A DNA stretch of 32,000 bases from IMG/VR virus record IMGVR_UViG_3300009548_000002. The stretch is one strand, 5' to 3'. The position numbers and the translations under genes were made by a program. This stretch comes from a virus. Every line of letters begins with the position of its first letter. Position 1 is the first letter of the stretch. Shown piece by piece: positions 23,330 to 23,404 of this stretch. Below the pieces are notes generated by a model that saw nothing but the letters and a program-made list of their open reading frames with translations, searched no databases and was not told the DNA's origin.

Positions 23330-23404
23330 ACGGTTTCGTAGACCGTTGCCTCACCATTTGGCTTTTTTCCCAATTTTGGCGGGAAAAGTTGGATTCGAAC
23401 CAAC
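23330..23404 (-). tRNA. tRNA-Arg(ACG)-like in permuted order (3' half upstream of 5' half)
   Basis: Minus strand reads GTTGG-TTCGAAT-CCAAC TTTTCCC G CCA / AAATT / GGGAAAA AA GCC-AAATGGTGA-GGC A ACGGT-CTACGAA-ACCGT. The acceptor strands are 7/7 complementary. Confidence 0.45.

Follow-up and report, generated by a model that had tools for sequence, protein, structure and literature searches.

Within a 32,000-nt stretch of viral DNA (IMG/VR record IMGVR_UViG_3300009548_000002), referred to here as the window, the gap between two tRNA genes holds an element of ~148 nt (23443-23296, minus strand) in which the 3' half of a tRNA-like sequence precedes the 5' half. The element is very probably a member of a conserved family of permuted tRNA-like RNAs and not a relic. 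The family occurs in large-phage tRNA arrays, is previously uncatalogued, and is absent from Rfam 15. Overall, the element is probably best explained as a conserved permuted tRNA-like RNA that acts as a tRNA mimic, rather than as a decoding tRNA.

A permuted tRNA-like arrangement in a viral tRNA array

The window is phage-like, with a GC content of ~62%, and its open reading frames (ORFs) include a major-vault-protein-like protein, a radical SAM enzyme, a DUF4326 protein, a PLD-like nuclease, an HNH endonuclease, and an HTH protein that is located inside a tRNA array. Homologues of a neighbouring ATPase-like gene occur on contigs of 285-760 kb. The array consists of 34 minus-strand tRNA genes, and the element is located between tRNA-Ala(tgc) (23444-23516) and tRNA-Thr(ggt) (23218-23289). 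The core of the element (23404-23330, minus strand) presents, in order, a T arm, an acceptor 3' strand, G, CCA, AAATT, an acceptor 5' strand, a D arm, and a hairpin. Starting at 23404, the letters read GTTGG-TTCGAAT-CCAAC, TTTTCCC, G, CCA, AAATT, GGGAAAA, and AA, followed by GCC-AAATGGTGA-GGC, A, and ACGGT-CTACGAA-ACCGT, ending at 23330. GGGAAAA and TTTTCCC form seven of seven Watson-Crick pairs. The D arm has a 3-bp stem, the GG is present, and U occupies position 20. The parts of the element, including those established from the fold and the homologues described below, are collected in Table 1.

Table 1 Parts of the element, in order from its 5' end, with window coordinates.
Part	Position	Strand	Basis
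P1 5' strand, GAUGAUUGCC	23434..23443	-	MFE fold of the spacer; pair probabilities 0.997-1.0
Internal loop, 5' side, ACUC	23430..23433	-	Fold; 4x4 internal loop in most members
P2 5' strand, GCGCCG.GC	23421..23429	-	MFE fold
Single-stranded joiner, UCACAAGCAAAAAAUU	23405..23420	-	
T arm, GUUGG-UUCGAAU-CCAAC	23388..23404	-	Sequence, ARAGORN, Rfam
Acceptor 3' strand, UUUUCCC	23381..23387	-	7/7 complementary to 23371-23365
Acceptor loop, G-CCA-AAAUU, 9 nt	23372..23380	-	
Acceptor 5' strand, GGGAAAA	23365..23371	-	Sequence, ARAGORN on the re-ordered pieces
AA (positions 8-9) and D arm, GCC-AAAUGGUGA-GGC	23348..23364	-	Sequence, Rfam
A26 and fourth hairpin ("anticodon arm"), ACGGU-CUACGAA-ACCGU	23330..23347	-	
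Single-stranded joiner, CAAAAGACAAU	23319..23329	-	Family consensus CAAaa
P2 3' strand, GC.AUGGCGC	23310..23318	-	Fold and covariation
Internal loop, 3' side, ACUC	23306..23309	-	With the next GG, the conserved ACUCGG motif
P1 3' strand, GGCAGUCAUC	23296..23305	-	Fold, pair probabilities

A preliminary description of this DNA had listed the same pieces in the same order on the minus strand, and all of them are present, with the acceptor strands complementary throughout. Its account of two orphan halves also stands: the 39-nt leader lacks GGGAAAA and could not accommodate the 5' portion of a tRNA, and the 40-nt trailer contains neither a T arm nor TTTTCCC. The extent that it gave is correct for the core, but the leader and the trailer belong to the element as well. 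Likewise, the T arm is an orphan, as described, but the upstream half had been taken to lack an anticodon arm altogether, and the stretch immediately 5' of it, CTCACAA-GCAAA-AAATT, looks like a Val-type sequence running from the 3' side of the anticodon loop and stem into the variable loop. The upstream piece thus appears to be more than a bare T arm.

When the two pieces are placed in tRNA order, ARAGORN reports tRNA-Arg(acg) for 22 of 22 choices of the variable loop, which agrees with the earlier statement that the re-ordered pieces make such a tRNA. The Rfam tRNA model matches the halves of the element separately, one at model positions 10-42 (17.8 bits) and the other over the T arm and acceptor 3' strand (14.3 bits); no other Rfam family matched the element. 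A strict scanner, which required a T arm, an acceptor 3' strand, a linker, a fully complementary acceptor 5' strand, a D arm, and an anticodon arm in that order, returned a single site in 194 kb, namely the element, together with its identical copies in contigs L008 and L009. The same scanner found zero matches in ~7.8 Mb of shuffled sequence, and under relaxed criteria the other matches were junctions between ordinary adjacent tRNAs only.

The arrangement was recovered from separate samples. Logan SRR12951266 and ENA ERZ27249777 are 100% and 99.98% identical to the window over 10.5 and 8.7 kb, respectively, with the element included. Because two independent assemblies agree with the window across the element, an assembly artefact was rejected. 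A protein-coding reading was rejected as well, since the ORFs over the site (23006-23341 and 23308-23520 on the plus strand, 23200-23703 on the minus strand) extend through tRNA genes. The apparent back-to-front arrangement of a tRNA-Arg is real.

Predicted fold and closing helix

The minimum free energy (MFE) fold of the whole 154-nt spacer is a permuted cloverleaf that is closed by pairing between the leader and the trailer (z -4.1; 0/200 shuffles). The closing structure consists of a 10-bp helix (P1), a symmetric 4x4 internal loop (ACUC/ACUC), and an 8-bp helix (P2), and it joins the body via single strands of 16 and 11 nt. P1 begins 1 nt past the ACC end of tRNA-Ala(tgc) and ends 6 nt short of the 5' end of tRNA-Thr(ggt). 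The 18-bp leader-trailer helix has a predicted energy of -32.1 kcal/mol (z -4.7), as compared to -16.7 ± 3.3 kcal/mol for 2000 dinucleotide shuffles, none of which were as low. Among the 34 ordinary tRNAs of the array, the lowest duplex between flanks was -24.5 kcal/mol. The helix closes the gap at the variable-arm position, and in the MFE fold of the window copy G73 is able to pair with U-1, giving a longer acceptor stem. According to this model, the element is a tRNA cloverleaf whose opening lies at the variable-arm position and whose acceptor end is closed. The surroundings of the element show no promoter-like sites, and terminator-like sites occur there at chance level.

Homologues in other viral contigs

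Direct searches were of little help. The exact junction pattern had no match in the viral, genome, and metagenome collections, a pattern restricted to the loops had none in the viral collection, megablast against known phages gave only similarity to tRNA-Gly, and exact look-ups of two window proteins matched no record. The contigs of two relatives identified through the ATPase-like gene (L001 and L005, 77-84% protein identity) end at least 250 nt short of the element, and no close relative (70-95% identity) spanning its position was recovered. Homologues were reached by way of the array-resident HTH protein, which led to other arrays and to contig L029. The L029 homologue contains the joiner motif ACAAGCAAAA, an orphan T arm, a GCC...GGC D arm, the fourth hairpin, and the terminal helix, and its acceptor pairing is again 7/7 with a wholly different sequence (CAAGGCC/GGCCTTG). 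Further homologues were collected with two independent sequence patterns, one for each half of the molecule, and covariance models were used to split members from tandem-tRNA junctions. Members scored 48-168 bits over their full length, and tandem-tRNA junctions scored at most 50 bits with mostly local matches. In the genome collection, the pattern running from the T arm to the D arm gave, among the matches listed, only tandem tRNA junctions of Firmicutes (≤50 bits, local), and given that scope we do not claim a distribution restricted to phages.

The resulting family has 12 members on eight contigs, comprising the window element and 11 homologues in seven large viral contigs. The loci often hold two members each, and the members are always located exactly between tRNA genes, for example in the order Leu-a-Pro-b-His in contig L036. 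Each member, when folded independently, gives the same MFE architecture. From the 5' end this is P1, the internal loop, P2, an A-rich strand, the T arm, a looped acceptor stem of 7(+1) bp, and the D arm, followed by a fourth (anticodon-derived) hairpin, an A-rich strand, P2', ACUCGG, and P1'. The window element shares the P1/ACUC loop/P2 closing helix, the ACUCGG motif, and the position between two tRNA genes. A covariance model built from the 11 other members, with the window element excluded, matched the window element with 102 bits (E 1.7e-23, model positions 1-160), and the next best match of this model had 42 bits.

Covariation was evaluated over the 12 sequences. Pairing is retained in 95.6% of cells and both sides have changed in 33 of 42 pairs (131 cells), figures that are generous in that the alignments were fitted to the structure of the model, which favors it, and that count fewer than 12 independent lineages, given that several members are paired on one contig. 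In the controls, 0/500 shuffles did as well as the real alignment on any of the five measures, and pairing fell to 30-47% when the 3' partners were slid. An alignment of six sequences gave comparable values (96.0% of cells paired, 29/42 pairs covarying), and RNAalifold recovered 22 of the 42 pairs from a plain MAFFT alignment of five. By helix, the covarying pairs amount to 7/8 in P1, 8/8 in P2, and 7/8 in the acceptor stem; acceptor stems differ at most positions among the members, yet are always paired 7/7. The T-arm helix (helix 3) is 100% paired with its inner two pairs invariant, the GCC/GGC D stem is invariant in 12/12 members, and the T-loop and the GG of the D-loop are also invariant. 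The conserved single-stranded motifs of the family are ACUCGG and ACAAGCAAAA, the latter being common to the window element and five other members. The topology is that of a circularly permuted tRNA, as first proposed; selection maintains it, and it is no accident.

The same results leave little room for the proposal, raised as an alternative in the preliminary description, that the element is a now functionless relic of two tandem tRNA genes, one missing its 5' part and the next its 3' part. Although the upstream joiner that resembles half of a Val-type anticodon arm and the whole anticodon arm downstream are the overlap expected of a truncated dimer, and the array may often be rearranged, as its HNH and other endonuclease-like genes suggest, decay as the present state is refuted by the conservation with covariation and is highly improbable: a relic would not be expected to show this degree of pairing and covariation over 12 copies on eight contigs, an 18-bp helix between its flanks, four arms that are all intact (7/7 and 5/5), a 102-bit match to a model from other phages only, or homologues that are not recent copies of one sequence, their acceptor stems being different at most positions. 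As an origin, a dimeric tRNA is still plausible.

Features peculiar to the window copy

Two features on which the tRNA-Arg(ACG) reading depends are not shared by the family. Acceptor loops range from 4 to 29 nt, and N-CCA is present in the window copy alone (1/12); the chance of one N-CCA among 12 loops is ~0.17. The loops of the homologues are CGAG, GAAT, AATTAT, or ~22 nt with a small hairpin, starting with A-CGA, A-CTA, or C-CGA, and in three homologues they are 4-6 nt long. The CCA of the window copy looks like a by-product of a deleted loop hairpin when it is set against the CC|GA-hairpin-..AAAU of its relatives. The loops of the fourth hairpin are similarly varied. They are 5-7 nt long, with CUACGAA (window), CUAUUAA, CUUGAGA, CAGUAAA, and UAUUCAA at 7 nt, and CUUUCA, CUUAGA, AUAGAA, GUGUA, AUAGG, and AUCCA in the other members. 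We read them as probable decayed anticodon loops without a conserved triplet. In one member, L048b, a canonical-looking loop in the fourth hairpin occurs together with a 4-nt acceptor loop. The fourth-hairpin stem of the window copy equals the family consensus (ACGG...CCGU CAAAA), and only its loop is specific to this copy.

The window copy has A8 in place of U8, U20 in place of A20, and a D stem of 3 bp. U8 is near-universal in tRNAs, and A20 is the main ArgRS identity element in E. coli. An ordinary tRNA-Arg(acg) is already present in the array (22787-22860), and its loop is also CUACGAA. The Arg(ACG) reading and the CCA are peculiarities of the window copy. This copy may also differ in behavior from the rest of the family, as its short G-CCA loop and 7-bp stem correspond to what an RNase P substrate needs.

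Comparison with YrlA-type Y RNAs

The preliminary description knew of no bacterial or phage example of a permuted tRNA. YrlA-type Y RNAs are, however, comparable; they are described as looking like tRNAs that have been circularly permuted and closed at the acceptor stem, and phages carry them (PMC4201824; bioRxiv 10.1101/312249). YrlA mimics a tRNA in its L shape, has conserved T and D stems, and is modified by tRNA enzymes; an origin from dimeric tRNA has been proposed for it (PMC4201824; bioRxiv 10.1101/312249; PMC7824862; PMC12135203). The element shares with YrlA (RF02553) the order of T arm, looped acceptor stem, and D arm, with the elbow nucleotides; a terminal helix formed by paired 5' and 3' ends; conservation of the T and D stems and of the elbow nucleotides; the proposed origin from dimeric tRNA transcripts; and presence in phages with tRNA arrays. 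The two differ in where the terminal helix is located. In YrlA it takes the place of the anticodon stem, and the T arm comes after a V arm, whereas the element keeps an anticodon-derived 5-bp hairpin after the D arm and has its terminal helix between that hairpin and the T arm.

Searches with the YrlA model did not place the element in RF02553. With a gathering threshold of 69 bits, there was no match at E up to 10, either in 23285-23450 or in a scan of the array, and the best local match on any family member was 23.9 bits. The GNCGAAN0-1G motif was looked for in the leader, GATGATTGCCACTCGCGCCGCGCTCACAAGCAAAAAATT, which contains no CGAA, and the 5' strands of the homologues likewise contain none. 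No Ro60/TROVE protein was found among the window ORFs (no unassigned ORF exceeds 300 aa) or in the available flanks of the members on contigs L036, L047, and L048, and genes for RtcB or an RNA ligase were likewise absent from the window and from the available flanks of the other members. No window ORF of the size of Ro60 or RtcB is left unaccounted for. By the available tests, the element works like YrlA but is not YrlA.

These findings bear on whether the element could nonetheless be a bona fide Ro60-bound Y RNA, that is, a divergent YrlA whose P1/P2 rod binds a phage or host Ro60/Rsr ring and whose tRNA-like domain tethers an exoribonuclease or another effector. The T arm, closed acceptor stem, and D arm in the same core order, the terminal helix built from the 5' and 3' ends, and the conservation of the T and D stems as for YrlA (bioRxiv 10.1101/312249) all speak for such an assignment, as do a YrlA-design RNA 300 nt upstream in the same array and the known phage Ro60/Y RNA pairs (PMC4201824, PMC12135203, PMC7824862). 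We nevertheless consider it doubtful, given that the Rfam YrlA model fails to match at E up to 10 even when the 166-nt region is searched alone, that the 5' strand carries neither GNCGAAN0-1G nor CGAA, that a TROVE gene is absent within 4 kb, in the 32-kb window, and in the available flanks of other members, and that the terminal helix is at the variable-arm position with the anticodon arm retained.

A similarity between GATGATTGCC in the leader and the GAAGAWTRC 5' motif of YrlA-like elements (contigs L020, L021, and L028) was at one point taken for homology; this candidate was dropped, as the true homologues do not contain the motif.

Comparison with permuted and split tRNAs and tmRNA

Permuted tRNA genes of algae and of Thermofilum pendens contain a bulge-helix-bulge (BHB) motif and are processed by splicing endonuclease and ligation to a circle, then by RNase P and tRNase Z (Soma 2014, PMC3978253). 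Like the genes of Cyanidioschyzon, other algae, and T. pendens, the element has the 3' half upstream of the 5' half in one transcript (PMC3978253). As in the algal and archaeal genes, an intervening loop initially closes the acceptor end, the leader and trailer pair, and the re-ordered halves form a complete cloverleaf (ARAGORN 22/22). The element differs in that its homologues have neither a conserved anticodon nor a free CCA end. No BHB motif is present at the element junction, with no pair of 3-nt bulges 4 bp apart in the predicted closing structure, and no tRNA splicing endonuclease or ligase was seen among the window ORFs. The element is not a permuted tRNA gene of the algal/archaeal type.

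Permuted ssrA, which yields two-piece tmRNA (RF04321), is a bacterial precedent for a permuted tRNA-like gene. The likeness lies in an upstream acceptor piece with a T arm and CCA, an intervening loop that is removed, and helices that hold the pieces together. tmRNA differs in carrying a tag reading frame, pseudoknots, and alanine identity (G3:U70) and in having no D and anticodon arms. The Rfam tmRNA_permuted model did not match at the element, the acceptor pairs of which are G1-C72, G2-C71, and G3-C70 and which has no coding segment; it is not a permuted tmRNA. The split tRNAs of Nanoarchaeum equitans are encoded by separate genes and are joined at a BHB in the anticodon region by splicing machinery. 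They resemble the element in that the tRNA body is assembled from separate 5' and 3' halves with an extra helix of flanking sequence, but the halves of the element are adjacent in one transcript and are probably covalently linked via the acceptor loop.

Could the window copy decode as tRNA-Arg?

The preliminary description held that the element encodes a tRNA-Arg(ACG) that is re-joined at the variable loop, and in this form the window copy would be a genuine permuted or split tRNA, charged and decoding CGN codons. RNase P would cut 5' of G+1 in the acceptor loop, and AAAUU would be trimmed back to the encoded CCA. The resulting pieces (~67 and 82 nt) would either be ligated or stay together through the 7-bp acceptor stem and the 18-bp P1/P2 helix, the latter forming a long variable arm with a nick. 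ARAGORN calls the re-ordered sequence tRNA-Arg(acg), the 7-bp acceptor stem is followed in register by G73-CCA just 5 nt ahead of G+1, and CUACGAA is identical to the loop of the ordinary tRNA-Arg(acg) in the array. In M. smegmatis, a YrlA with a closed acceptor stem of 7 bp undergoes RNase P cleavage in vivo and gains CCA (PMC4201824), and RNA ligases are frequent in jumbo phages (PMC7824862). Since the 7-bp stem, G-CCA, and 5-nt tail of the window copy resemble the RNase P-cleaved M. smegmatis YrlA, a two-piece tRNA retains some small likelihood for this copy.

The family does not support a re-joined tRNA-Arg(ACG), because the homologues have no CCA, acceptor loops as short as 4 nt, and varied fourth-hairpin loops. 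N-CCA occurs in 0/11 homologues and would appear once among 12 loops with a chance of ~0.17, three homologues have acceptor loops of 4-6 nt, and the anticodon-like loops vary, with canonical-looking ones accompanying closed 4-nt acceptor loops (L048b). For the window copy itself, the CCA has the appearance of the loop-hairpin by-product noted above; the element also lacks U8 and A20, with A8 and U20 in their places and a 3-bp D stem, and has neither a BHB motif nor a splicing endonuclease. An ordinary tRNA-Arg(acg) is already provided at 22787-22860. In addition, G73 can pair with U-1 and so lengthen the acceptor stem, and bacterial RNase P is inhibited when a leader pairs with the 3' RCCA and thereby extends the acceptor stem (PMC9433436). 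On balance, a charged, decoding tRNA-Arg(ACG) is unlikely, and we assign a similarly low likelihood to the window copy having been re-tooled as a two-piece tRNA or as a nuclease-resistant spare for tRNA-Arg(ACG). If a two-piece tRNA were to prove true, archaea and algae would no longer be the only sources of split or permuted decoding tRNAs, and this first case elsewhere would be made without a splicing endonuclease.

A spacer that punctuates processing is less probable still. Being tRNA-shaped, it would recruit RNase P, RNase Z, or RNase E and so assist cleavage of the long array transcript, or it would shield the neighboring tRNAs from exonucleases, and the released RNA would have no role of its own. 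The exact placement of members between tRNA genes, with P1 abutting both neighbors, would suit this function, as would the finding of no promoter-like sites nearby and of terminator-like sites at chance level. However, most tRNA pairs in the same arrays are 1-20 nt apart without such an element, and the conserved ACAAGCAAAA and ACUCGG motifs together with the invariant D and T stems exceed what punctuation needs.

Proposed release, mode of action and origin

For the preferred reading, a conserved permuted tRNA-like RNA acting as a tRNA mimic, we propose the following model. The element would be transcribed as part of the array and released when the neighboring tRNAs, tRNA-Ala(UGC) on its upstream side and tRNA-Thr(GGU) on its downstream side, are cut during maturation. 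Release by processing of the flanking tRNAs is suggested by how close P1 lies to them, beginning 1 nt past tRNA-Ala and stopping 6 nt short of tRNA-Thr; with P1 abutting both tRNAs, processing of the neighbors would free an RNA with paired ends. The released RNA is expected to have an L-shaped tRNA body, as suggested by the invariant T-loop, D-loop GG, and D stem, with its ends clamped in the P1/P2 rod. Because a free CCA end is absent in 11 of 12 members, the RNA would be a stable, non-chargeable tRNA mimic whose tRNA elbow is offered to a tRNA-binding factor. A second factor would probably dock on the conserved ACUCGG loop in P1, in the manner of YrlA-type Y RNAs. We regard a mimic or scaffold mechanism as having about an even chance of being correct.

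The most likely origin of the element would be a dimeric tRNA transcript, consisting of the 3' part of one tRNA, a spacer, and the 5' part of the next. Such an origin fits well because the joiner upstream is Val-like, while the downstream half retains a whole anticodon arm. The assignment of the joiner to tRNA-Val is partly circular, as some loci were chosen by the same motif, and its independent support, which is weak, comes from the tRNA-Val(cac) genes of the unselected loci only. The 5' portion is closest, by a narrow margin (19 vs 18 and 17), to a tRNA-Arg(acg) of contig L005, and we do not claim a donor tRNA.

The family adds a second, structurally distinct class of permuted tRNA look-alikes to those in phage tRNA arrays; in this class, for which covariation is strong, the opening is at the variable arm and an anticodon-derived arm is retained. 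The element looks like an intermediate on the proposed path from dimeric tRNA transcripts to Y RNA-like mimics, a model that is testable by sequence. Should the mimic titrate or recruit a tRNA-binding enzyme or a tRNA-targeting defence nuclease, it would bear on phage control of host translation and immunity. The window copy, with its CCA and canonical anticodon loop, is a natural test case for a mimic reverting to tRNA function.

Structured RNAs missed by tRNA finders are present in the gaps of jumbo-phage tRNA arrays, and phage tRNA-gene counts and spacer annotations are therefore incomplete. The array in the window also contains a separate RNA of YrlA design (23705-23848, 27.8 bits), and related arrays contain a further family with weak YrlA matches. 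These phages thus carry several kinds of T-arm-first tRNA mimics.

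T-arm-first RNAs in the window and in related arrays

Besides the member of the permuted family, the tRNA array of the window encodes another T-arm-first tRNA-like RNA, which follows the textbook design of YrlA, the Y RNA class that resembles a permuted tRNA with a closed acceptor stem. Its acceptor stem is capped by a GAAA tetraloop, and it reaches 27.8 bits with the Rfam YrlA model, below the gathering score of 69.

A reduced element was found in phage locus L019 at the position syntenic to the permuted tRNA-like RNA of the window. It is preceded by tRNA-Ala(tgc) and followed by a Thr(GGT)-like tRNA that ARAGORN does not call, and it gives no match with R1 or R2, the covariance models of the permuted family.

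Related arrays in three other large-phage loci (L020, L021, and L028) hold a separate family of T-arm-first elements with a common 5' motif, GAAGAWTRC, and a common 3' motif, CTTGTCTYC. Two of these elements give weak YrlA alignments over their full length (25.8 and 28.8 bits). In the L021 copy, the acceptor 3' strand is followed by T-CCA with no gap.

Positions of the RNAs and genes described here
Feature	Locus	Position	Strand	Parts or detection
Second T-arm-first RNA	window	23705-23848	-	long terminal helix; V arm; T arm CTGGG-TTCGAAT-CCCAG; acceptor stem; D arm GCTC-AACGGCA-GAGC
Reduced element	L019	11377-11440		T arm GTTGG-TTCAACT-CCAAC; closed hairpin with 2x2 internal loop; third hairpin; 5-bp closing stem
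Separate T-arm-first family	L020	4698-4827, 7808-7945, 9220-9325
Separate T-arm-first family	L021	1494-1633
Separate T-arm-first family	L028	9795-9945, 13939-14081, 18243-18380
Genes near permuted-family members	L036	3201-3926
Genes near permuted-family members	L047	12797-13456
Genes near permuted-family members	L048	6077-7387
tmRNA	L018	5967-6348
tRNA-Asp(gtc)	window	23920-23991	-	relaxed ARAGORN; missed by default
tRNA-Trp(cca) candidate	window	23852-23920	-	relaxed ARAGORN; missed by default
tRNA-Ser(cga)	window	19953-20036	-	relaxed ARAGORN; missed by default
tRNA-?(Stop|Leu)(ta)	window	22330-22404	-	ARAGORN
Its counterpart	L005	590-664
Major-vault-protein-domain ORF	window	3220-5832	-
HNH endonuclease	window	20308-20907	-
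HTH protein	window	24345-24986	-

Gene neighborhoods

The surroundings of the permuted-family members in L036, L047, and L048 are a translation and tRNA-metabolism neighborhood. They include genes for R2K-clade ATP-grasp proteins (E 4e-36 and 9.7e-24) as well as one for a CCA-adding enzyme, which has a PolyA_pol head (E 1.9e-37) and an HD domain; no gene for the Y RNA-binding protein Ro60 lies near the family members in these neighborhoods. In another phage tRNA array, that of L018, we found a complete-length tmRNA gene (Rfam, 112.9 bits) with the tag ANDNAVAEAA*.

Additional tRNA genes

The window array contains at least 37 tRNAs, because a relaxed ARAGORN threshold adds Asp(gtc), Trp(cca), and Ser(cga). 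The MFE structure of the Trp(cca) candidate has an anticodon loop of 9 nt, CCUCCAAAA. The gene called as tRNA-?(Stop|Leu)(ta) encodes a class I tRNA of 75 nt whose anticodon stem has 4 bp and encloses a loop of 8 nt, ACUUAAAA. It matches the Rfam tRNA model at 42.4 bits and is kept in an 84% relative (L005). Possible readings are an ochre suppressor and a tRNA whose loop is non-standard.

Other genes in the window

One ORF of the phage-like genome, 870 aa long, contains major-vault-protein domains (MVP_shoulder, E 9.7e-26; Vault_3, E 1.6e-08); PHROG returned no match for it. tRNA-Pro(ggg) and tRNA-Ile(gat) are separated by an HNH endonuclease gene (E 1.5e-16), which fills the interval and sits in the same place in the relatives L001 and L005.

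Within the tRNA array lies a gene for a 213-aa HTH protein, which is also found within the arrays of many large phages, L018, L019, L020, and L028 included. Its GC content is ∼51%, compared with 62% for the window, and its 3' end adjoins or overlaps tRNA-Pro(UGG) in all loci examined. Ten contigs from different samples encode 100% identical copies of the protein. The gene is possibly mobile or of a homing type, with a link to tRNA-Pro(UGG).
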